From NCBI GenBank assembly GCA_964487045.1, contig CAZAOT010000003.1, positions 72,983-136,982 on the forward strand: a stretch of DNA of 64,000 bases, written 5' to 3'. The translations under genes were made by a program, and so were the position numbers. Below, in pieces: positions 1 through 32,956 of this stretch; position 1 is the first letter of the stretch, and each line of letters opens with the position of its first letter. The stretch comes from an uncultured Candidatus Saccharibacteria bacterium (GTDB taxonomy: Bacteria > Patescibacteriota > UBA1384 > DTJR01). The notes below the pieces were generated by a model. The model saw only the letters and a program-made list of their open reading frames with translations, did not search any database and was not told the DNA's origin.

Positions 1-1011
1 ATTCAATTCCCCAAAAAATTTAAGCTCGTAAGGTATTTCAATCACAAAAGCGAGGAATAATTTTGTAAGTAAAATGAAAAAGATACCCCTGACAACCCCG
101 CGAAGCACTTTCTTGCGAATATTATCATTTCTTCTTGTTATCTCAGAGCGGACAAGAGCATTAAATCCATCTTTAGAGTTTAAGTTGTGCTCAAAATTGC
201 TAGTTCCGCGATGAATCGACTCGTAGATTATATTAAAAGCAGGCGAGGTCTTCTTGATATATTTATTAATCGGGGACTTCTTGTTGTAAATGATTTGCTT
301 TTCTACTTGCTCAAAATAACTTGGAAAATTCACTATAAACTCTTGACCTTCATTTTTCGGAACTTTCGGCCAAGACTTATAGTATCTAGAGAGGAGTTTA
401 TAGCGAAGCTGTTCCCAATCTTCTTTTACAATTACTTTTCTAATAGATATTTCGATTTGTATATCAACCAAATCCTCGGGCAATTCTTCGGAAAGATTAA
501 TATTTTGCGAATATATCTGCTTGCAGAAGGTCATATATTCATCTCTCTCGTCTGAATTGGAGAGCAGCTCTTCGATTTCGCAAGCAGCGAAGCTAACAAA
601 AAGGTCGGTAGAGGCTGTTTTAGAAAGATTGAGTTTGGCGTTTTCTCTAAAATAAGTATATTTGCGCAAGATACTGTCGATTTCTTCTGCTAAAGAGATC
701 GGTATAGTTTCGTTTTCGAAATATTTTGCCCAGACTAGCTCCTTGAGAAGAGCCAAGCCATTGCCTTGAGCGCCTAGATAGGTGCGTCTTTTGAGAATTC
801 GCTTTATCGCGTTTTTCAAAAATAAGTGCTCGTCTTGATATTCAATAGCATTTCGAAGTTTTTCGTAGTAAAAGGCCGCTTGGCCGACTGATTCATTTAC
901 TTTAATCTTTGCTTCTTGAGAGTCTTTATACTTAAGTGTCTTTTTTCCCTTGATGGCAGCTATAGTTTTTTGTAGATGGGCGTTCACCCCGTTAGAGAAA
1001 ATATTATTCAT
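1..1011 (-). CDS. hypothetical protein, C-terminal part outside window (at least 337 codons)
   Basis: The minus-strand frame is stop-free from 1011 to the window edge (hand translation MNNIFSNGVNAHLQKTIAAIKGKK...). ATG is at 1011-1009. It is absent from the ORF track because no stop lies in the window. There is a hydrophobic segment near the edge, no SD, and no family recognised. Confidence 0.5.
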   Translation of the reverse strand, partial: MNNIFSNGVNAHLQKTIAAIKGKKTLKYKDSQEAKIKVNESVGQAAFYYEKLRNAIEYQDEHLFLKNAIKRILKRRTYLGAQGNGLALLKELVWAKYFENETIPISLAEEIDSILRKYTYFRENAKLNLSKTASTDLFVSFAACEIEELLSNSDERDEYMTFCKQIYSQNINLSEELPEDLVDIQIEISIRKVIVKEDWEQLRYKLLSRYYKSWPKVPKNEGQEFIVNFPSYFEQVEKQIIYNKKSPINKYIKKTSPAFNIIYESIHRGTSNFEHNLNSKDGFNALVRSEITRRNDNIRKKVLRGVVRGIFFILLTKLFLAFVIEIPYELKFFGELN

Positions 1012-1203
1012 AAGTTTTTTTGATTTATTTATTTTGTATTATATTTGCTGACTTCTCTAACGGGGTTCATTGTTCTATTATTCGCCCCGTTAGAGATTGC
1101 GCAATCATTTTTCCTAACCTTTTGCTATCTTTATAAGATAGGCTTTATAATATGACTATTGGTTTGGTTTTTACGAAAGCTATGCTTTCTATCTCTAACG
1201 GGG
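985..1203. repeat. four copies of CCCCGTTAGAGA arranged as two inverted-repeat pairs in a divergent intergenic region
   Basis: Copies lie at 987-998 (fwd), 1054-1065 (rc), 1085-1096 (fwd) and 1192-1203 (rc). Pair 1 shares ACCCCGTTAGAGAA and pair 2 shares CCCCGTTAGAGAT. Confidence 0.85.
1122..1151 (+). promoter_or_regulatory. candidate sigma70-type promoter for 1211 gene (TTGCTA-18-TATAAT) with CTATCT/AGATAG palindrome in the spacer
   Basis: TTGCTA at 1122-1127 and TATAAT at 1146-1151, with the palindrome CTATCTTTATAAGATAG between the boxes. Confidence 0.45.
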
Positions 1204-1210
1204 TTAAATT

Positions 1211-1747
1211 ATGCTTATTCTATTAATTATTTTAGATTTATTTTGGTCGGGGGCAGCTTGGGTATATGACATGAGCAAACTCATAACACTCTCGCCCTTA
1301 ATTTGGCCGTTTGTGGCAGTCTGCCCGGTCTTTCCGCTTCTACTAGCCCTTGTTCTCCTGCAATTGTATCGCAAAAAATCCCCAAATCAATTTTTACTAG
1401 CTTTTGCGGCAGTTGGGAGTGTCATTTATGGATTGATAGCAATCCTGTTTTATCCAGTTGCAATGATATATCAAGGATTTTCTTGGAATGGTCTTGGGCA
1501 AATATTTTGGGTACTGGTTTATGGCGTGCAAGGAGCTTGGCTGATAAAAAAATACAAAATTAAAAAATTGCCTCTGTACACCTCTACTATTTTTTTTGGA
1601 GTGCAGATAATAGTGATAGATCTCTGGCAGAAAAGCTTTGGTTATTTCGATTTTTCAAATATTCCCTTTTTGATCTTAATTCTTGTAGTAATCTTAAGTT
1701 TTCTATTTTTTTCTATACTCCTTGATGTTTTAATGAGAAAGTGCTAA
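1211..1747 (+). CDS. small polytopic membrane protein (possibly DUF1405-like)
   Basis: 178-aa ORF with several hydrophobic helices. The family assignment is from memory only. Confidence 0.6.
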   Translation: MLILLIILDLFWSGAAWVYDMSKLITLSPLIWPFVAVCPVFPLLLALVLLQLYRKKSPNQFLLAFAAVGSVIYGLIAILFYPVAMIYQGFSWNGLGQIFWVLVYGVQGAWLIKKYKIKKLPLYTSTIFFGVQIIVIDLWQKSFGYFDFSNIPFLILILVVILSFLFFSILLDVLMRKC

Positions 1748-1787
1748 AATTCCCACAGCGATATTATTCTGATTGCGGAGGCCTACT

Positions 1788-2111
1788 ATGTCCGACCTTT
1801 CTGCTGTCGCTAGTCGTGTTGTTGGGGGTGTTCTTCTGACTCGGACTCCAGGCAATATCTTGCGCTGGGGGGCATTCCGGGTCGTAAATGCTACGACCAA
1901 CCCGGTTGGGTCGTTGCAGTTGGAGATTGAAGCAGTAGAGCCCCCTTTCAAGCAGTTTGAAGGGCGCTCGGTGGCGAAGGGGGTTTACGGCATGGGGCGG
2001 ATGTTCCGAAACCGAGGCAATCCGCCCAAGTATGACGGGAAGATAATTCGGCTGGAGGATCCTCTGCTGATCGCTGGCTATGATCCGGCGCCGATGATCT
2101 TTCTGATCTAG
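1788..2111 (+). CDS. hypothetical protein, GC-rich cassette 1
   Basis: ATG at 1788 follows GGAG (1777-1780). The track start at 1773 is TTG. Composition is GC-rich against the AT-rich flanks and a terminator follows. No family recognised. Confidence 0.6.
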   Translation: MSDLSAVASRVVGGVLLTRTPGNILRWGAFRVVNATTNPVGSLQLEIEAVEPPFKQFEGRSVAKGVYGMGRMFRNRGNPPKYDGKIIRLEDPLLIAGYDPAPMIFLI

Positions 2112-2583: not shown

Positions 2584-3657
2584 CTAGGATTTGCCCCAAT
2601 CGAGATCGGGGTCTTCGAGGTCGAATGATCGTCCGCGGATGAATGGATAGATGCGGGTGATCGAGAGGTTGAGGTGCTCAATGGTTTCACGGCTGAGGAT
2701 TGGCTTGGGCTTGTTGCGAAGTGCCCCGAACAACCGATGGACTTCATAGTCATTCATCTGCAGCAGCAGAAGCGTTGGATTGGCGTCTTGGAAATGCTCA
2801 GAAGACGAGATGAACTCATAACAGCGTTCAAGCTCGCTGGCAAACGGCTTGCGATTAGCGTTGAGCGGTACGTAACAGTTAGCGTACATCCAATCGCGTA
2901 GTCGCCAGAATTCCTTGGCTTCGTCGCTCTTAGAGAAACTGATCCGACCTACCGATGCCGATTCCCTTACCAGGGCATTTGCGAAGTTGAGCAGCCTCTC
3001 TTCCTTGGTTCGTCCGAAGCACATCGCTTGATGGTCGGCCTCTTCGAAGCCTGCTCCGATCCGCAAACCATCCTCGATGTCAGAGAACATGTAGATTTTG
3101 TCTACGATGTTCACCAGGCGAAACTCCTGAGGAAGCCATATGTACTTCTGCCGAGAAGTGCCTGAGTGGTGGTAGATTCCAAGCAGAGTTTCATAGGCCA
3201 GGTCGAGACCTTTGCCCGAGTGTTCAATTCTCTGTAGGTTCAGGCAGGCGATAATGCGGTGGTCGATCGTCAAACCACACAGCTTCGAGATTGTCTCCTC
3301 TCCAAAATGACCGAAGGGTGCGTGGCCGGTGTCATGCCCTAGCCCAACCGCTTCTGTCAAGTACTCATTTAGCTTGAGGAACCAGGCTATGAGCTTAGCG
3401 AGACTTGCAACCTCCATGATGTGAAGCAGTCGATCATTACTGGTCGATTCTTCTCTTCCGATGAAGACTTGGGTCGTTCCATGCTTGCGAAACAGGGACT
3501 CGCTATTGCCGACCCAGTAAGCATCCTCAATGAAGCCTCGCTTACCGGTTGGTCTCCTTCGCCCTCCCTCTTTCTTTGGTCGTCGTCCGCGACTCATCTC
3601 TTCTTGGAACCGTAGGTGCGCCAAGCACCCACGATATCTCTTGTCGAGGTTTAACAC
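2584..3657 (-). CDS. dGTP triphosphohydrolase-like HD-domain protein, GC-rich cassette 2
   Basis: Motifs TTQVF, HIMEV and GLGHDTGHAPFGH match the dGTPase/SAMHD1-type HD signature. GTG start at 3657 lies 7 nt after GGAGGTG. Composition is GC-rich. Confidence 0.75.
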   Translation of the reverse strand: MLNLDKRYRGCLAHLRFQEEMSRGRRPKKEGGRRRPTGKRGFIEDAYWVGNSESLFRKHGTTQVFIGREESTSNDRLLHIMEVASLAKLIAWFLKLNEYLTEAVGLGHDTGHAPFGHFGEETISKLCGLTIDHRIIACLNLQRIEHSGKGLDLAYETLLGIYHHSGTSRQKYIWLPQEFRLVNIVDKIYMFSDIEDGLRIGAGFEEADHQAMCFGRTKEERLLNFANALVRESASVGRISFSKSDEAKEFWRLRDWMYANCYVPLNANRKPFASELERCYEFISSSEHFQDANPTLLLLQMNDYEVHRLFGALRNKPKPILSRETIEHLNLSITRIYPFIRGRSFDLEDPDLDWGKS

Positions 3658-6298: not shown

Positions 6299-6990
6299 TC
6301 GTTGCTCCCTGCTTTATCTTTTTCTTCTTCCGTCTCAATCCCTATGATCTTGAGCGCCGAGCTTGTTCCAATTCGAGTGGCGCCTGCTTCAATCATACCC
6401 TTAGCCTCTTCGAATGTATGGATTCCGCCCGATGCTTTGACCTTTACCTCGTCCCCCACAGAAGCACGCATCGTCTTAATATCATCGATGGTCGATGGTC
6501 TTGGGCCGTAGCCAGTCGATGATTTCACAAATGCTGCTCCTGCTTTCTCGGCTCTCTTGCATGCTTCGGTTAGCTCTTCTTCTGTTAGAAAGCCAACTTC
6601 CATAATAACTTTGAGGCCAATTGGCTGAATCGCTGTTGCGATTTCCCTGATTTCTTCTTCGATAAAATCAAATTTCTTCTCTTTAATTGCTCCAATGTTA
6701 ACAACCATATCAATCTCGGTTGCGCCATCTTCTACAGCGAGCTTGGCTTCGGCTACTTTAATTTCGGTTTTTGAAATACCAAATGGAAAGCCAATTACAC
6801 TAATTACTTCAATATCGGCTCCTTCGAGATATTCTTTTGCGGCTGCTACGCGGTAGGTAGTGACGCAAACACTATGAAAACCATATTCCTTAGCTTCAGA
6901 GCAAAGCTTTTTGATGTCTTCATTTGTAGCATCTGCTTTGACACAAGTGTGGTCAATATAAGAAACGATATTTTCTTTTGTAATATTCAT
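6295..6990 (-). CDS. deoC: deoxyribose-phosphate aldolase
   Basis: YIDHTCVK, VIGFPFG, EIDMVVNIG and FVKSSTGYG are DeoC class I aldolase motifs. Confidence 0.9.
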   Translation of the reverse strand: MNITKENIVSYIDHTCVKADATNEDIKKLCSEAKEYGFHSVCVTTYRVAAAKEYLEGADIEVISVIGFPFGISKTEIKVAEAKLAVEDGATEIDMVVNIGAIKEKKFDFIEEEIREIATAIQPIGLKVIMEVGFLTEEELTEACKRAEKAGAAFVKSSTGYGPRPSTIDDIKTMRASVGDEVKVKASGGIHTFEEAKGMIEAGATRIGTSSALKIIGIETEEEKDKAGSNE

Positions 6991-7130
6991 TAAATCTCCT
7001 CAAGTTTAGGTCCTTCGATTCCTGCCCCTCTACCTGACGCACTGCAATAACAGGACGGAGTCAGTTTTGCAGTAAGGAATGGTGTGGGGTGGTCAATATA
7101 TTTTCTAATTGATTGTTGATCTAGTTCCAT
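6990..7130 (-). CDS. upstream mini-ORF (46 codons): DeoC-like N-terminus (..YIDH) fused to conserved tail PTPFLTAKLTPSCYCSASGRGA
   Basis: ATG at 7130 lies 4 nt after AAGGAGGG. The ORF is in frame through the 68-nt element. Its TAA overlaps the deoC ATG as TAATG at 6992-6988. Confidence 0.45.
   Translation of the reverse strand: MELDQQSIRKYIDHPTPFLTAKLTPSCYCSASGRGAGIEGPKLEEI
7021..7088 (-). repeat. 68-nt conserved hairpin element, copy 1 (inverted relative to copy at 13990-14057)
   Basis: CCCACACCATTCCTTACTGCAAAACTGACTCCGTCCTGTTATTGCAGTGCGTCAGGTAGAGGGGCAGG. I counted 59 of 66 positions identical to copy 2. The stem is CTGCAAAAC/GTTATTGCAG. Confidence 0.85.
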
Positions 7131-7245: not shown

Positions 7246-7968
7246 CTAGCTTGGTAGCTGAAGCGGAGTTAGATACTCAGCAGCTCTGGGAGTCGCCTTG
7301 ATGTCAGCTTTGTATCCATAGGTTCTCGCTGTCTCCAGATCCCAAGCGTAACTACCAGCGGGCTGAGTGGGCCTTGCGATGATTCGCGGGTCAAACCCTA
7401 TCTCATTTCCGGTCGTTGCCCAGTCGATATATGGGTTGATGTCAACTTCATACCGGAAAGGATCGGTCCGATCGCCGGCAGCAAGTGTAGCCAGCTCATC
7501 TAGACGATCGTCTGGCCAGTAAACCTTGCTTGTTGTCTGGCGGTTTTCGATCTCGACCCATTCATCGCCAACTGAGATGACTTCCGCTTCGTCGAAATGG
7601 ACAAATGCCTCTTGCGGAATCTCAATCTCCGGAAACATCAACTCCTCGGGACAGAGCTGTTCGAAGAAGGTCGTGCCAAGTAGCGTTATGCTGTCATCCC
7701 CACGTGGGATGACAAAGTAGGGCTGGTTTTCGTATGCGCCCCACTTCTGGCCAGGCCAGAGATAGCCAAGCGCCCAATCACCGTCTTTTTGCTGATAGAC
7801 GAGCCATGCCGCGCCGCTTCGAACTTCCCACGCTACTGAGCAAAAGTTGTGAAAAGCTGGTTCGGCTGGCCGCTCCGGTGATATCCTTAGCAGGAAAGAG
7901 CAGCACATGTCGGCTTTGTACATGAACGAGTCGATGATCCTTGGCCTAAACTGAAGCCGGTTTGGCAT
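7246..7968 (-). CDS. hypothetical protein, GC-rich cassette 3
   Basis: ATG at 7968 lies 6 nt after AAAGGAGG. The track start at 7992 is less well placed. 240 aa, no motif recognised. Confidence 0.6.
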   Translation of the reverse strand: MPNRLQFRPRIIDSFMYKADMCCSFLLRISPERPAEPAFHNFCSVAWEVRSGAAWLVYQQKDGDWALGYLWPGQKWGAYENQPYFVIPRGDDSITLLGTTFFEQLCPEELMFPEIEIPQEAFVHFDEAEVISVGDEWVEIENRQTTSKVYWPDDRLDELATLAAGDRTDPFRYEVDINPYIDWATTGNEIGFDPRIIARPTQPAGSYAWDLETARTYGYKADIKATPRAAEYLTPLQLPS

Positions 7969-8059: not shown

Positions 8060-8581
8060 TTATTTATAAATATAGATCTTCGGAGAAGTATTCTTTTTTA
8101 ATGGTTTGCGCCCTGTGAAATTAAAGGTTAGGGACACAACGGAAGCATTTCGCTTTAAATTTTTAAAAATAATAGGTTCAATCTTAGCTAAGAGTTTTTC
8201 AAGTAGATAGACATAAATCAAATCAGCTTTGTTTATTAGGTTTTCGTATTTTAATATATTGCCGTAATAAATTTTAATATTTTTGGTTTGATGGTGAAGC
8301 GCAACATTTAATTTGGCGAGTATGAAATAGAAAGGGGAGATTTCGATGCCGATACCTTTTGCTCCAAACTCTTTGGCAGCAATAATCAAGCTTCGCGCAT
8401 TGCCACAGCCGAGATCGATGACCACTTGTCCAGATTTTAAGTAGGCCATCTCAAAAGCCTTTTTAATAATTTTTTCTTTAGCGTAAACCGTCGGTGCACC
8501 TGAAAAGGCGGAGATTAACAGAGAAATTTGCCAAATAAGTGCGATCAAAGCTAGAGTGATAAATAATATAGAAATAGTCAT
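8060..8581 (-). CDS. class I SAM-dependent methyltransferase with N-terminal membrane anchor
   Basis: VIDLGCGNARSLIIAA is the motif I glycine loop. An N-terminal hydrophobic helix is present. Confidence 0.75.
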   Translation of the reverse strand: MTISILFITLALIALIWQISLLISAFSGAPTVYAKEKIIKKAFEMAYLKSGQVVIDLGCGNARSLIIAAKEFGAKGIGIEISPFYFILAKLNVALHHQTKNIKIYYGNILKYENLINKADLIYVYLLEKLLAKIEPIIFKNLKRNASVVSLTFNFTGRKPLKKNTSPKIYIYK

Positions 8582-8611
8582 ATTTATCTAAGATTAACAT
8601 TTTGTTTCATA

Positions 8612-8656
8612 AATAAAAAAGAAAGCCCGGGCGCTCCACTGGGGAGGGCTCGGGCT
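8612..8656 (-). terminator. intrinsic terminator of cassette 4
   Basis: Arms AGCCCGGGC (8624-8632) and GCTCGGGCT (8648-8656). TTTCTTTTTT follows on the minus strand. Confidence 0.8.
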
Positions 8657-8678
8657 TGATGAGGCGTGGTAGCGGGTG

Positions 8679-8939
8679 CTACCGGAGGTTTCGGCGCTGA
8701 TCCGCGGTGGGGTTCTTGCCCACGTTTGAGTTGCCGACCGTCCGCTTTCGCACGATCCAGTCGGCAAGGAGCACGAAGGCGCTGATCGTGGCAGTGATGG
8801 CAGTCATGTAGAGCGTCGGCTTGCTCTTAAACATGATGCCAAAAGCGATGAAAAGCGGGGTAGTGGGGAAGAGGAAGAATTTGAACAATCTCCTCTTTCC
8901 CTTGGTGAGAAAAGACTTCGGCTTGAGTGACTTCATCAT
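8679..8939 (-). CDS. small membrane protein (2 predicted TM), GC-rich cassette 4
   Basis: 86 aa with two hydrophobic stretches and basic termini. GC-rich, last gene before the terminator. Confidence 0.55.
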   Translation of the reverse strand: MMKSLKPKSFLTKGKRRLFKFFLFPTTPLFIAFGIMFKSKPTLYMTAITATISAFVLLADWIVRKRTVGNSNVGKNPTADQRRNLR

Positions 8940-8953
8940 AGTCCTCCCTGTTT

Positions 8954-9523
8954 CTAGCCCTTGCAGTCAGGGCATACGATCGTGATTTGGTTTCCTACGC
9001 CGGACCCTGTGTCCGGAATGAAGGGATCTCCACAGCGGAAGCAGTATCTGGGTTCACCTGCAACCAGCTTCTTGTCTGCATCCGAGCAGACCTTGCACTT
9101 GCGGGGATTCCAGAGGTTGCGTCTGCTTGGGGTATAAGCACCGCAATGTGGGCAGTAGAAGTGTGTCATTAGGCGTTGCCCAGTGCTCTTGGCGACAGGC
9201 GGGATCCAGCGCTTGATCGTGAAGCGCTGCTCCAAACCAGGGTGCAACTCTACCGTAGCGCCGTGGCCGCTGGTAGCTCGGACAGCAAAGCCGTTTTCCA
9301 GAAAGAGGTTCGCTATCTGCGCGAGTTCGCCCAGAGGTTCCTGGTTGAGGGCAGTTGCCAACTCAACATAGCATAGTTCTTCTGGAATGCTAGCGGCAGG
9401 CTGGTTGATTTCGACAGCGATACGAGCTTGCTGCTCCTCGGGTAGATTTGCCAATAAGGCAGTAATCCGCCCCTTGAGCGCGTCTGCTTCTTGGCTTGTA
9501 CTGGTGACTCGGGCGCGGATCAT
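8954..9523 (-). CDS. double zinc-ribbon protein, GC-rich cassette 4
   Basis: The C-terminal 70 aa carry four CxxC pairs (CPHC, CKVC, CFRC, CPDC). The N-terminal about 110 aa are unassigned. SD AGGGAG is upstream. Confidence 0.65.
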   Translation of the reverse strand: MIRARVTSTSQEADALKGRITALLANLPEEQQARIAVEINQPAASIPEELCYVELATALNQEPLGELAQIANLFLENGFAVRATSGHGATVELHPGLEQRFTIKRWIPPVAKSTGQRLMTHFYCPHCGAYTPSRRNLWNPRKCKVCSDADKKLVAGEPRYCFRCGDPFIPDTGSGVGNQITIVCPDCKG

Positions 9524-9571
9524 GGTTGCTCCCTATCCTTTTTGGTATGTAAAGGTTCGAACGAACGTTTG

Positions 9572-9600
9572 ATTATATTTGAATTACGTCCGAATGTCAA
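9572..9600 (-). promoter_or_regulatory. perfect consensus promoter TTGACA-17-TATAAT
   Basis: Minus-strand TTGACA is at 9600-9595 and TATAAT at 9577-9572, with a 17-nt spacer, upstream of the zinc-ribbon gene. Confidence 0.7.
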
Positions 9601-9613
9601 TAATTAAGTACAA

Positions 9614-9634
9614 GGGACGCCGGAGGGGCGTCCC
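9614..9634 (-). terminator. hairpin after 9638..9919 gene
   Basis: Arms GGGACGCC and GGCGTCCC. The downstream T tract is weak. Confidence 0.5.
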
Positions 9635-9637
9635 TGA

Positions 9638-9919
9638 TCAGAGCCAGCAGTCGTGGCGAGTGATGATATTTCCGTCATCGCCAATACTGCCAACTTTGCA
9701 TGTTCTTCCGAGACGGCGAAAGCCTCTCATTGCAGGAGCAAATGCGGCTGCACCTAACAATATATAGAAGCTGGTACCAGATATGCCCGAGATGGTAGCG
9801 AAAAGCCAGAACATCTTGGGGTAGCAGATCGCTACAGTCGTTGAAGTGTACGCAACCCCTTTGAGAAGGGGAGCGAGAACGATCGGTCGTGAAACTAATG
9901 ACAGAATTCGACTGATCAT
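9638..9919 (-). CDS. small membrane protein, GC-rich cassette 4
   Basis: 93 aa with hydrophobic helices. SD GGAAGGAG lies 6 nt before the ATG. Confidence 0.55.
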   Translation of the reverse strand: MISRILSLVSRPIVLAPLLKGVAYTSTTVAICYPKMFWLFATISGISGTSFYILLGAAAFAPAMRGFRRLGRTCKVGSIGDDGNIITRHDCWL

Positions 9920-9984
9920 GCGCTTCTCCTTCCGAGGGATATGGTTAAATTATCCTAAAACAAGTTTGTTTTCAACCTGATAGA

Positions 9985-10074: not shown

Positions 10075-10149
10075 GGGCCTGTAGCTCAGTGGTAGAGCAG
10101 TTGCCTTTTAAGCAACGTGTCGTGGGTTCGATACCCACCAGGCCCTCCA
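10075..10149 (+). tRNA. tRNA-Lys (anticodon UUU), CCA encoded
   Basis: Hand-folded cloverleaf. Acceptor stem GGGCCTG/CAGGCCC, D stem GCTC/GAGC, anticodon stem GTTGC/GCAAC with loop CTTTTAA, T arm GTGGG-TTCGATA-CCCAC. 75 nt in total. Confidence 0.92.
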
Positions 10150-10187: not shown

Positions 10188-10341
10188 TTATTTGGAGTCA
10201 CTTAAGAGCGCGAAAGGCGTAGGCCGAGCTAAGGTCGAGAAAAAAAATCAGCAAAAATTGTCCAACATCTTGATTTTTTGAAAAATAAGTGAATAATGTA
10301 TTATTAATTTGGAATACGTACATTGAAAGAGGTAGGTAGCG

Positions 10342-10761
10342 ATGAGTAAGCGCATCCTGGTGGTTGATGATGAGCGCCACATCGTCCGTCTGGTTAAGCT
10401 CAACCTGGAACGCGCCGGCGGCTATGACGTCCTGACAGCGTACGACGGGATCGAGGCTCTGGGCAAAGTCAAGACCGAGAGCCCCGATATGGTGGTGCTC
10501 GACATCATGATGCCCCGGATGGACGGTTACGAAGTACTGCGTAACTTGCAAGCAGATCCCAGCTGCCAGAACATACCCGTGATCATGCTGACCGGCAAGG
10601 ACCAGGACGCCGACTTCTTCAAGGCCTGGGCCAGTGGGTTGAGGGCATATATGACAAAGCCCTTTGATCCCCAAGAATTGCTGACATTCATCCAACGGAT
10701 CTTCGAGGCCGATCAAATCGGGTATGGGGATGATACAGATGATTCGTGCTTTGAAGTGTAA
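10342..10761 (+). CDS. stand-alone response-regulator receiver (CheY-like), GC-rich cassette 5
   Basis: The acidic pocket and phospho-acceptor pattern ILVVDDE...DMVVLDIMMPRMDG...MLTGK...KPF is present. No output domain and no kinase nearby. Confidence 0.9.
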   Translation: MSKRILVVDDERHIVRLVKLNLERAGGYDVLTAYDGIEALGKVKTESPDMVVLDIMMPRMDGYEVLRNLQADPSCQNIPVIMLTGKDQDADFFKAWASGLRAYMTKPFDPQELLTFIQRIFEADQIGYGDDTDDSCFEV

Positions 10762-10785
10762 TGTAGCTTGCCCCTCTCGATTCCC

Positions 10786-10827
10786 ATGCCCGCATCTGCT
10801 CCGGAGGCTTTGCGGGCATTCTTTTTC
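10786..10827 (+). terminator. intrinsic terminator of cassette 5
   Basis: ATGCCCGCA/TGCGGGCAT stem followed by TCTTTTTC. Confidence 0.85.
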
Positions 10828-11003
10828 TAAATAGTTAACACCCATTTTATAAAGTCCAAACACAAATTTTTCAAAATTAGTTCAATCTGAGCCACAGGTG
10901 AAATTTCGCGTTCCACCCGCGAAATCCCCAGAAATAAAATTGCCCCGTTAGGGGCTATTTTAATTATTTAGAGATGTTTCCAGTCGTGTGATATATTAGT
11001 CCT

Positions 11004-16448: not shown

Positions 16449-16473
16449 GTTGGCCAAAATAGGGAGGCAGATT

Positions 16474-17739
16474 GTGGACAAAGAAGCGATCCAAGGCGCC
16501 CGCAGGGCGCTTCTGCTCAAGAAGCTTGAAGTAGCATCAACGACCAAGGAATGCACCCTTGCGTTCCAGGGTCTCAAGCTCTACAGAGATGACCTTTCGA
16601 TTGTCGCCACTCGTAAGAGAGCGATTGAGCTCGCAGCTTCGGCAGGCGACATGGATGAGGTTCGTCGCTTTCCGTATGATGTGGGTATCTTCTCTCTGGG
16701 AGATCAGGCTTCCGAGTTCTTTCGTAAGGCCATGCTGCTTTGCAGGCCTGAAGAAGTATACGACTTCACAGGCAACTTCGGCTATTACGCCGATGAAGTT
16801 GTTAGCTTCCTTGTCGAGGGGCTTACCGATCCGCTCAAGCTGACTCGACTAGCGATGCGACTCGGAGCGGAGGGTCTGCTTGAGCGCGGACAGGAAGTGA
16901 TCGCTCGGGCTGCTGAACTGGCTGCAAGCTGGGAAGTGTGCGGTTATGTCGGGACGATACACTATGCGCCGCTTCCGACAGGGTTTCTGACCATGGCCGT
17001 CCTTCTCGCTGAGGGGCAGAAGGGTTACGATGCTCCTCTCGAAGTTTGTGGGTGGATGAAGGCTTCGCTCAACGACCCGCTCGAATTCAGACAAGCAGCG
17101 GCTGTTGCCGAGCTGCTTGATGCGCCAAACAAGCGTATCAGGCGGGTAGCCGGAGAGCGGATCAGGCAGGCTTACCAGGAGAAACTGAGCGGCCAAGATG
17201 GCGACTTCTATATCCAAAGCGCCTGGAACGTCGTTTGCGATGCCCGCGATGCGCTTCCGGAACTGGCTGCAGAGCTGACCGCTGATCTCGTGGTGCGTCT
17301 GACAGATGCGGTACCAGCCTGTCAGGACTTTTCGGAGGCAAAGTCGCATCTTGAAGTCGCTTCCGCAATGGAGGACTTCGGGATCGATGGAGTCTACTGG
17401 CCGGCAGCCATGCGTGCGATGGAGCTGGCAGAGGGCTGTGATGATATCCTGGCGTTGGTGCGCCTTGGCATTCATGTCCAGGAGCTCACCGAGGCTGTCC
17501 TGGTAATGGCTGCAACCGAAGATGATATCATTGCAGTCATACAGCGCAACCCGAACTTCTCTGGTGAGTGGACGTTGCCTCTTTGCGAGCGGATCTTCGA
17601 CTATCGGCGCCAGAGGGCGCAGACGATCGAGGACTTCATGATTCTGCATCACCTGACCAAGGACCCGGTCAAACTGGCCGAGGTCGAGGATCGCATCCAG
17701 GAGCTCATCGCTCCATACCATACCGAGCCTGAGGAGTAA
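16474..17739 (+). CDS. hypothetical all-alpha protein (about 421 aa), cassette 6 gene 3
   Basis: GTG at 16474 lies 6 nt after GGGAGG and is in frame with the track start at 16450. The sequence is acidic and Leu/Ala-rich. A terminator follows. Confidence 0.65.
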   Translation: MDKEAIQGARRALLLKKLEVASTTKECTLAFQGLKLYRDDLSIVATRKRAIELAASAGDMDEVRRFPYDVGIFSLGDQASEFFRKAMLLCRPEEVYDFTGNFGYYADEVVSFLVEGLTDPLKLTRLAMRLGAEGLLERGQEVIARAAELAASWEVCGYVGTIHYAPLPTGFLTMAVLLAEGQKGYDAPLEVCGWMKASLNDPLEFRQAAAVAELLDAPNKRIRRVAGERIRQAYQEKLSGQDGDFYIQSAWNVVCDARDALPELAAELTADLVVRLTDAVPACQDFSEAKSHLEVASAMEDFGIDGVYWPAAMRAMELAEGCDDILALVRLGIHVQELTEAVLVMAATEDDIIAVIQRNPNFSGEWTLPLCERIFDYRRQRAQTIEDFMILHHLTKDPVKLAEVEDRIQELIAPYHTEPEE

Positions 17740-20389: not shown

Positions 20390-20418
20390 TTGACTTGTCT
20401 GCTGATTTTGTCTAATAT
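20390..20418 (+). promoter_or_regulatory. promoter TTGACT-17-TAATAT for cassette 7
   Basis: TTGACT at 20390-20395 and TAATAT at 20413-20418. Confidence 0.6.
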
Positions 20419-20476
20419 CTGCTTATCGGAGGCTTTGATCCTTCGGTATTTCTTCAAATCGGCAGGAGGGAGCGTC

Positions 20477-20851
20477 ATGCCGAGGGATTCGATTCTCTAC
20501 GAAAAAGCCAGGGCGAGGTGGGAGTATGCTTCACATCTTCCATCTCGCAGTACAGTCAGGCAGTATTCGCTCAAGTGTTTCGCATTAGTATACCCGGTCG
20601 AAGTTTTGCGGGAATACTGGCGTGTAGACGCGTTGTCGCGCCAGAGTCTAATGGTATCGTCTCACAGCTTTGCCCCTTCTCCCGCTGAACTTGCAGCCAT
20701 GGCAGAAGGGCGTGACCGTAATGAACGGCGCGCAAATCAAGCCAGGGCGAGACTCGAAAGGATGGCGACGGAGCACGGGGTGGACCTAGATGCGATGGCT
20801 GATGATATCGCATTCGTTTGGCACAACTGGAGTCTGCTTGAGCTCGAGTAG
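20477..20851 (+). CDS. hypothetical protein (124 aa), GC-rich cassette 7
   Basis: ATG at 20477 lies 6 nt after GGAGGGAG. The C-terminal half is Arg/Ala-rich. Confidence 0.55.
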   Translation: MPRDSILYEKARARWEYASHLPSRSTVRQYSLKCFALVYPVEVLREYWRVDALSRQSLMVSSHSFAPSPAELAAMAEGRDRNERRANQARARLERMATEHGVDLDAMADDIAFVWHNWSLLELE

Positions 20852-32398: not shown

Positions 32399-32436
32399 TA
32401 AAAAAGAGGAAAGCCCCCCGCCATGCGGCAGGGGGC
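32399..32436 (-). terminator. intrinsic terminator of cassette 8 (probably bidirectional)
   Basis: GCCCCCCGCC/GGCAGGGGGC stem. TTTCCTCTTTTTT follows on the minus strand. Confidence 0.8.
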
Positions 32437-32461
32437 CTTGTTTCCCGGTGCGATGAAAGTC

Positions 32462-32911
32462 TCACCAGCGTCCCCCCGGGTAGGGGTTGTTGGCGCGCTC
32501 GAAGTTCCGCTGAGCGCGCTCCAGGTCTCGGTAGCCGCTCGACAGGTAGCCGAGCCGCCGCCGCTCCGCTTCGATGGCGGAGATTTGGTTGTTGTACCCA
32601 CCCTGAGGCAGGTACCCGCCTTGGTAGCTGTAGCCACCCTGGGCGACGTAGCCGTTGCCGCAGCCATAGTTGCGCTGCTGGCAACCGCAGATAGTGCCGA
32701 TCGGCCTGATTTGGAAGCAGGCCGAACAGCGGACGAGCTGCGCCTGCGGGGCGAAGTAACCGCCACCGCAGGTGGGCATCGGCATCGGGCGATAGCCCGG
32801 GCCGCACCCACCACCGCTGCCACCGACCGAGAGGATCACGGTGATCCTGGGGCCGGCGCTCGCCGTCGAAACGGCGGCGATTACGACGAGAACGATTGGC
32901 ATCGTCCTCAT
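32462..32911 (-). CDS. secreted Gly/Cys/Tyr-rich low-complexity protein, GC-rich cassette 8
   Basis: ATG at 32911 yields the signal peptide MRTMPIVLVVIAAVSTASA. GGY repeats and 10 Cys. It was chosen over three overlapping ORFs because it has an SD, a promoter and a terminator. Confidence 0.55.
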   Translation of the reverse strand: MRTMPIVLVVIAAVSTASAGPRITVILSVGGSGGGCGPGYRPMPMPTCGGGYFAPQAQLVRCSACFQIRPIGTICGCQQRNYGCGNGYVAQGGYSYQGGYLPQGGYNNQISAIEAERRRLGYLSSGYRDLERAQRNFERANNPYPGGRW

Positions 32912-32956
32912 TTTGGACACCTCTTTCAAAGGTGCTGGAATTGACTGATTCGGGTA

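Follow-up and report, generated by a model that had tools for sequence, protein, structure and literature searches.

Organization of the locus

The DNA described here is a 64-kb stretch of contig CAZAOT010000003.1 from an uncultured Candidatus Saccharibacteria bacterium, hereafter the window, in which two adjacent minus-strand genes form an operon that encodes a cytoplasmic protein with a C-terminal double zinc ribbon and a small hairpin membrane protein. Together with a third gene upstream, they correspond to minus-strand open reading frames (ORFs) called at 9638-9919 (93 residues), 8954-9523 (189 residues) and 8679-8939 (86 residues), as given in a preliminary description of the same DNA, and all three align in frame to their orthologues in locus L001. 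The loci used for comparison are those of a related species (L001-L003) and of a Candidatus Berkelbacteria metagenome-assembled genome from Lac Pavin (L008-L013 and L014). The preliminary description had grouped the three genes into a single module, a view that has to be narrowed, since the 93-residue gene is separately terminated, occurs in two close relatives only and is absent upstream of the pair in L008. The first unit of the locus thus comprises the 93-residue gene and a hairpin, and the second is a bicistronic operon composed of a promoter, the 189-residue gene, a 14-17-nt gap containing a ribosome-binding site (RBS), the 86-residue gene and a terminator. The conserved core consists of the zinc-ribbon gene and the hairpin gene.

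The operon is headed by a sigma-70-type promoter, TTGACA-17-TATAAT (9572-9600, minus strand), which matches the consensus at 12 of 12 positions. It is the sole perfect site of this kind in the window, in keeping with the textbook promoter noted earlier for the middle gene; with one mismatch allowed the window holds four sites against 0.58 expected, a number that was never reached in any shuffle. In L001 both hexamers are likewise perfect (12/12) and the spacing of 17 nt is the same, while the spacer matches at 5 of its 17 bases only. Directly after the -10 hexamer lies CAAACGTTCG (9562-9571, minus strand), which is identical in L001, contains the palindrome AACGTT and may represent the start-site region or an operator. 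As judged from these alignments, the retention of the hexamers next to a diverged spacer is the footprint expected of a functional promoter, accompanied by a conserved putative start-site or operator element, and the conservation of a consensus promoter suggests high expression. The counterpart in L008 reads TTGACA-17-TAAATT, with TG before the -10 hexamer. A structured 5' leader was also sought, and the fold of this region was no better than that of shuffled sequence (z -0.19).

A GC-rich hairpin (9613-9635, minus strand; nine pairs, -17.9 kcal/mol, z -3.5) directly follows the stop codon of the 93-residue gene, which bears out the earlier placement of a hairpin ahead of the promoter. It lacks a clear U tract and coincides with a gap in the alignment to L001, where it is not present; it is possibly a weak terminator or an insulator ahead of the promoter. 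The two-gene operon itself is closed by a strong intrinsic terminator (8611-8657, minus strand; -30.7 kcal/mol, z -4.6), formed by a stem at 8623-8657 followed by a U tract, and a comparable hairpin and T run are found after the 81-residue gene of L001. On its other side the locus is bounded by a tRNA-Lys(UUU) gene (10075-10149, plus strand), the sole match of an Rfam scan, which is divergent from the 93-residue gene and is a conserved boundary in both the window and L001.

A small family with conserved linkage

A word-indexed search of 5.8 billion proteins returned the 189-residue query itself and one 75%-identical protein, an exhaustive phmmer search of 1.84 billion representatives added a single true relative (P0003, 40% identity) and a profile search contributed one further member (P0007). 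In all, the zinc-ribbon family amounts to four 90% clusters among 5.8 billion proteins. A scan of GTDB genomes returned a Berkelbacteria contig only, scans of JGI metagenomes with the protein and with a degenerate motif yielded no relatives, and the literature search found no paper linking Berkelbacteria with zinc ribbons. Neither Pfam, NCBIfam, PADLOC nor PHROGs gave a match above cut-off for the four GC-rich proteins or their orthologues, and the earlier statement that nothing here can be assigned by motif therefore stands.

The order of genes in L001 is tRNA, genes of 93, 190, 81 and 241 residues and DeoC, which is that of the window minus a methyltransferase gene, so that all three genes of the original module lie between tRNA-Lys and deoC. 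Synteny is stable across this divergence, which amounts to 75-92% identity among the housekeeping neighbours, with saturation of synonymous sites. In L008 a 188-residue homologue is followed by 17 nt with GGAGG and then by a 108-residue protein, and this pair is flanked by a Band_7 gene that diverges from it and by a gene that converges on it, in a YARHG/Band_7 neighbourhood as opposed to the tRNA-Lys/deoC neighbourhood of the window. L016, which holds P0007, breaks off where the next gene begins, reaching no further than its start codon with the same RBS in front of it. Every contig that extends far enough to cover the downstream membrane gene, drawn from three lineages and from more than one neighbourhood, has that gene directly next to the zinc-ribbon gene, and the gap between the zinc-ribbon gene and the two-transmembrane (2-TM), basic-tailed gene is 14-17 nt in the window, L001 and L008. 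The co-occurrence of the genes that was envisaged in the preliminary description is thereby borne out for this pair and not for the 93-residue gene.

As a separate observation on the Berkelbacteria locus, the pair in L008 has as its neighbours the genes at 1073-1834 (minus strand) and 68-1048 (plus strand), which code for a Band_7/SPFH membrane scaffold, transcribed divergently, and for a protein with a YARHG domain.

Selection on the encoded proteins

The three genes align to their L001 orthologues without frame problems and with conserved RBSs. The zinc-ribbon protein is 76% identical between the window and L001, the 93-residue protein 58%, the membrane hairpin 40% and a 240-residue protein encoded further downstream 56%. 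The corresponding proportions of nonsynonymous and synonymous differences (pN/pS) are 0.16/0.72 for the zinc-ribbon gene, 0.31/0.77 for the 93-residue gene, 0.49/0.63 for the membrane hairpin gene and 0.30/0.81 for the 240-residue gene, compared with 0.13/0.80 for DeoC and 0.16/0.85 for the beta-CASP gene, and with a pN of 0.17 for the HD-domain gene. Since pN is below pS for each of these genes, they are all coding; constraint on the zinc-ribbon protein is at the level of housekeeping genes, and the hairpin protein is fast-evolving.

The zinc-ribbon protein

Core gene 1 (8954-9523, minus strand) encodes a 189-residue cytoplasmic protein with an N-domain (residues ~1-110) and a C-terminal basic double zinc ribbon. 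The latter carries the four CxxC pairs that had been read from the sequence before, C124PHC127, C143KVC146, C161FRC164 and C184PDC187, within ~65 residues. All eight cysteines of these pairs are invariant in the four family members, as are His121 and His126, and the invariant elements of the C-domain comprise HF-x-CPHCG, KKL-x-A-x-EPR-x-C-x-RC, PF-x-P-x-TGSGVG and CP-x-C. Conservation is highest in the C-domain, which shares 51-52% identity with the distant members as against 31-32% for the N-domain. The two halves also differ in charge, the balance being acidic in the N-domain (9 K/R, 13 D/E) and basic in the C-domain (12 K/R, 6 D/E).

The N-terminal ~110 residues had previously been left unassigned. 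This remains accurate as far as library matches are concerned, but a fold can now be proposed. An AlphaFold2 model built on a shallow three-sequence alignment (pLDDT 74.8, pTM 0.71) displays a predicted beta-alpha-beta-beta-alpha-beta-beta topology in this region, and the best structural matches are cis-CaaD, 4-OT, CHMI and MIF; the domain is accordingly predicted to be MIF/tautomerase-like. The catalytic Pro1 of that superfamily is absent in all four members, whose N-termini read M-I-R or M-I-G, for which reason the N-domain may be viewed as a possible oligomerization scaffold rather than an enzyme. Among the Pfam and NCBIfam matches up to E 1 there is no Tautomerase or MIF family, and a PDB sequence-profile search with the separate N-domain gave nothing significant (OSCP, E 0.9).

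With regard to the C-domain, Pfam DZR is the best or near-best match of all four members, at 15.4-17.9 bits (E 0.004-0.025), below the gathering score of 27. A PDB profile match to an archaeal Zn-ribbon RNA-binding protein was insignificant, both for the whole protein (E 0.008) and for the C-domain alone (E 0.13), and membership of that family was rejected, NCBIfam PRK14890 scoring 10.1 bits against a cut-off of 61. Homology to a known ribosomal or transcription-factor family, which the preliminary description had named as grounds for giving up its interpretation, was not found, and no known DNA-binding domain was detected in the library scans.

The hairpin membrane protein

Core gene 2 (8679-8939, minus strand; GC at third codon positions, GC3, 0.79) starts 14-17 nt past the stop codon of gene 1, behind GGAGG. 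A second ATG at 8936, which would yield 85 residues, has the better spacing from GGAGG and is where public contigs place the start. Hydropathy and charge delineate a basic N-tail, two hydrophobic (TM) segments, an Asp that ends TM2 and an Arg-rich C-tail, both tails being strongly basic, in agreement with the two TM segments assigned earlier. The TM segments of this core membrane protein are devoid of cysteines, and its conserved juxtamembrane motifs are R-x-x-F-K before TM1 and, after TM2, A-D-aromatic (plus or minus one residue) and an Arg cluster. The positional homologues found after the zinc-ribbon gene have 81 residues in L001 (40% identity) and 108 residues in L008 (31% over 55 residues), and the latter displays the same architecture, with a basic N-tail, two TM segments, an Asp ending TM2 and an Arg cluster.

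The upstream 93-residue protein

The gene at 9638-9919 (minus strand) encodes an accessory hydrophobic protein of 93 residues and, lying upstream of the operon, forms a transcription unit of its own. Its L001 orthologue is 58% identical and gap-free, with a conserved RBS, and the two share an invariant C-terminus, TRHDCWL, an RRLGRxCxVG tail and invariant Cys74, His89 and Cys91. The gene is confined to two close relatives, and no copy lies upstream of the pair in L008. Of the two tiny membrane proteins of the preliminary description, the 86-residue one is upheld by its two hydrophobic segments; the 93-residue one is likely to be a membrane protein, but less certainly so, its hydrophobicity being moderate (maximum Kyte-Doolittle value, KD17, 1.55; 1.93 in the L001 orthologue).

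An RRxLGxxCxVG juxtamembrane tail pattern is common to the 93-residue protein and the hairpin protein of L008 (L008 2687-3013). This hints at distant paralogy of the two small membrane proteins, which the matches do not bear out, being insignificant (hhalign probability 2%, E 0.022; BLASTP E 0.28), and two IMG/VR matches to the back-translated TRHDCWL-stop pattern were dismissed as chance hits without an ORF.

Base composition and neighbouring genes

The three genes have a GC content of 0.50-0.56 and a GC3 of 0.50-0.79, compared with a GC of 0.41 and a median GC3 of 0.35 for the window. The earlier designation of a GC-rich module is thus correct but describes nothing peculiar to it, since 10 of the 60 ORFs in the window have a GC3 of at least 0.5, among them the 240-residue gene (7246-7968), an HD-domain gene (2584-3657) and a receiver-domain gene (10342-10761). 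The L001 orthologues of the HD, zinc-ribbon, hairpin and 240-residue genes are likewise GC-rich despite the saturation of synonymous sites, from which it follows that the atypical composition is old or maintained. Gene composition in the window as a whole is bimodal, with the ten ORFs at GC3 0.50-0.79 set apart from the median of 0.35; the GC-rich genes lie at 2584-3657, 7246-7968, 8679-9919, 10342-10761, 16450-17739, 20390-20851 and 32423-32944, and several of them are without a Pfam match.

The GC-rich orphan gene of 240 residues (7246-7968, minus strand) directly follows the module in L001 and is separated from it by the methyltransferase gene in the window. Its product belongs to three clusters among 5.8 billion proteins, its own and those of two relatives, has no family match and gave an unusable AlphaFold2 model (pLDDT 38.6). 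The gene always lies just upstream of deoC, as a separate unit behind a terminator; the third homologue, in L015, is placed between the 3' end of a methyltransferase gene and deoC, on a contig too short to show the zinc-ribbon gene.

The intervening class-I methyltransferase gene (8060-8581, minus strand; Methyltransf_31, E 1.4e-9) is of low GC (GC3 0.35) within the GC-rich stretch. It is absent at this position in L001, and it is a similar methyltransferase 3' end that precedes the 240-residue homologue in L015, a pattern that reflects local gene gain or loss. A 46-residue ORF (6990-7130, minus strand) abuts the start of deoC, and its first 14 residues (MELDQQSIRKYIDH) are nearer to the DeoC N-terminus of the relatives than is that of the window's own DeoC; by its sequence, this ORF has the look of a deoC 5' remnant that a rearrangement left behind. 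On the other side of the locus, a stand-alone CheY-like receiver-domain gene (10342-10761, plus strand; GC3 0.71) lies just past the 3' end of tRNA-Lys, with no histidine kinase annotated nearby. An antisense ORF of 221 residues (10198-10863) that overlaps it is probably spurious.

Proposed function and alternative explanations

The reality of the genes, the operon signals, the conserved linkage, the selection acting on the proteins and the predicted fold and charge pattern are established, and the explanation that best accommodates them, put forward here as a tentative proposal, is a membrane-tethered zinc-ribbon complex encoded by a lineage-restricted two-gene operon of the candidate phyla radiation (CPR), of Berkelbacteria type. 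Both proteins would be co-expressed, strongly and probably constitutively, from the consensus sigma-70 promoter. The 189-residue protein would oligomerize via its Pro1-less MIF/tautomerase-like N-domain, acting as a scaffold rather than an enzyme, and its four CxxC pairs would bind two zinc ions per chain. The co-translated hairpin protein would hold it at the cytoplasmic face of the membrane, docking being mediated by the juxtamembrane motifs and the cytoplasm-facing basic tails, and the invariant loops of the net-basic zinc ribbons (KKL-x-A-x-EPR and PF-x-P-x-TGSGVG) would engage a conserved ligand, which we infer to be either nucleic acid or a conserved protein. The 93-residue membrane protein could be a lineage-specific extra component.

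Several observations weigh against a membrane-tethered complex. The membrane partner evolves fast (40% identity, pN 0.49), and it is held homologous to the L008 protein on the basis of its position and architecture and of a weak match (E ~0.02, obtained in a tiny database). The pair in L008 is GC-rich relative to its flanks (0.56 versus 0.44), it occupies different neighbourhoods in different lineages, and there is local gene flux, as seen in the presence or absence of the methyltransferase gene and in the relic deoC 5' end. An accessory or mobile role, for instance as a toxin-antitoxin pair, would account for the atypical GC, the patchy distribution and the relocation no less well than a cellular adaptor does. 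The cassette is a long-standing accessory element; its acquisition predates the divergence of the two close species, and selection has maintained it since then. Insertion as a tRNA-targeted island was considered and rejected, there being no integrase and no att-like repeat, and the module lying on the 5' side of tRNA-Lys, which is not where such elements insert.

The preliminary description had seen in the locus a resemblance to abortive-infection (Abi) or toxin-like modules. Recast as a toxin-antitoxin or Abi-like pair, by analogy with known systems, the hairpin protein, and perhaps the 93-residue protein too, would damage or depolarize the membrane, and the zinc-ribbon protein would neutralize it or repress the operon. 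One strong promoter driving a soluble gene with a small 2-TM gene close behind it is what such a system would show, the conserved palindrome-bearing sequence at the -10 hexamer could be its operator, and the atypical composition, differing neighbourhoods, local gene flux and extremely patchy distribution are in line with it, as are the known analogues CptB/CptA and GhoS/GhoT (PMC3827094). However, positive evidence for this function was not found. With any of the four proteins, PADLOC gave no family at E <= 1 and PHROGs no match, and neither these nor Pfam or NCBIfam connect the proteins to a known toxin or antitoxin family; no relatives were found in IMG/VR, INPHARED phages, PLSDB plasmids or BFVD structures. 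The neighbours in the window are tRNA-Lys, a receiver domain, NUDIX, the methyltransferase, DeoC and beta-CASP, with no defence genes, integrase or att-like direct repeats near the module. Moreover, synteny is stable, the evolutionary rate of the soluble protein is as low as that of housekeeping genes where synonymous divergence (dS) is saturated, and the invariant loops of its zinc ribbons point to a conserved cellular ligand and not to a fast-evolving partner. A toxin-antitoxin or Abi-like role is the main alternative, though an unlikely one, and the bolder claim that the cassette is a new CPR-specific system of a membrane-acting toxin and a soluble neutralizer (or an Abi system), in which a Pro1-less MIF-like domain joined to a double zinc ribbon would control one or two hairpin proteins, is to be regarded as still less likely.

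The remaining explanations centre on the soluble protein. The basic charge of its zinc-ribbon domain, the conservation of CAAACGTTCG at the promoter and a weak resemblance to archaeal Zn-ribbon RNA-binding proteins (E 0.008-0.13) would suit a self-regulating transcription or RNA-binding factor whose target would be DNA or RNA, such as its own promoter region, with the membrane protein as co-expressed cargo; but the archaeal matches are cysteine-driven and far below family cut-offs (PRK14890, 10 bits versus 61), no known DNA-binding domain was detected and the conserved pairing with a membrane protein is left unexplained, which makes this explanation quite unlikely. A role in metal handling, with a Cys-rich cytoplasmic chaperone or sensor of Zn, Cu or Hg and small membrane proteins loosely resembling MerP/MerT/MerE, would draw on the eight invariant cysteines and the invariant His121 and His126 of the soluble protein, on Cys74, His89 and Cys91 of the 93-residue protein and on a MerC-like match of the L008 membrane protein (E 0.15). 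That match is insignificant, however, the CxxC pairs are spaced as is usual in structural zinc ribbons, with sub-threshold DZR matches in all members, the TM segments of the core membrane protein contain no cysteines and no metal transporter or regulator lies nearby; this role is considered very improbable. Least probable of all is a tautomerase-superfamily enzyme with a zinc-ribbon appendage, since the structural matches to cis-CaaD, 4-OT, CHMI and MIF are countered by the absence of the catalytic N-terminal proline in all four members, by the lack of a tautomerase or MIF match in Pfam and by the N-domain being the less conserved half of the protein.

Little is known of the biology of the CPR, whose genomes abound in orphan genes, and the cassette is one among very many uncharacterized orphan operons of this group, with no bearing on a long-standing open question. 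Its building blocks, a double zinc ribbon, a MIF-like fold and a hairpin membrane protein, are known, while their combination and the family are undescribed and restricted to a few CPR contigs. Should the pairing hold, it would define a new architecture, a MIF-like scaffold joined to a double zinc ribbon, and a new small membrane-associated complex in one branch of the CPR. In addition, its conserved consensus promoter means that the cassette could serve as a handle for CPR promoter biology and for heterologous tests.

Comparison with known systems

The zinc-ribbon protein resembles DZR (PF12773) and DZR_2 (PF18912) in having four CxxC pairs within ~65 residues, and DZR is the best or near-best Pfam match of all four members. 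It differs in that the scores are sub-gathering and that the inter-knuckle loops (KKL-x-A-x-EPR and PF-x-P-x-TGSGVG) and the N-domain are specific to the zinc-ribbon family. The likeness to the archaeal Zn-ribbon RNA-binding protein in translation (PDB 9fny and 6sw9; PRK14890/COG2888-like) is local, around HF-x-CP-x-CG ... kC-x-x-C, and the scores lie below any accepted homology threshold. From the tautomerase superfamily (MIF, 4-OT, cis-CaaD and CHMI) the predicted N-domain is set apart by the absence of Pro1 and of a sequence match and by its C-terminal zinc-ribbon extension, and a full-text search found no paper containing both 'tautomerase superfamily' and 'zinc ribbon'.

Zinc-binding anti-sigma factors (ZAS) carry the motif H-x3-C-x2-C. 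With these the cassette has in common a putative cytoplasmic zinc-binding module associated with a membrane segment, as well as a His by a CxxC pair (H121-x2-C124-x2-C127); the H-x2-C spacing is nevertheless different, no sigma-factor gene is present in any of the loci and the membrane part is a separate protein.

In CptB/CptA and GhoS/GhoT the gene for the soluble protein precedes that for the toxin, which has two TM segments. The zinc-ribbon and hairpin genes likewise constitute an adjacent, co-transcribed pair for a soluble and a small membrane protein. In E. coli, CptB/CptA (YgfY/YgfX, type IV) and GhoS/GhoT (type V) each combine a small soluble protein with a small inner-membrane toxin encoded by adjacent genes (PMC3827094). 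No relationship in sequence or fold to either pair was detected, and the soluble partner of the present operon is larger, is predicted to bind zinc and is more conserved than its membrane partner.

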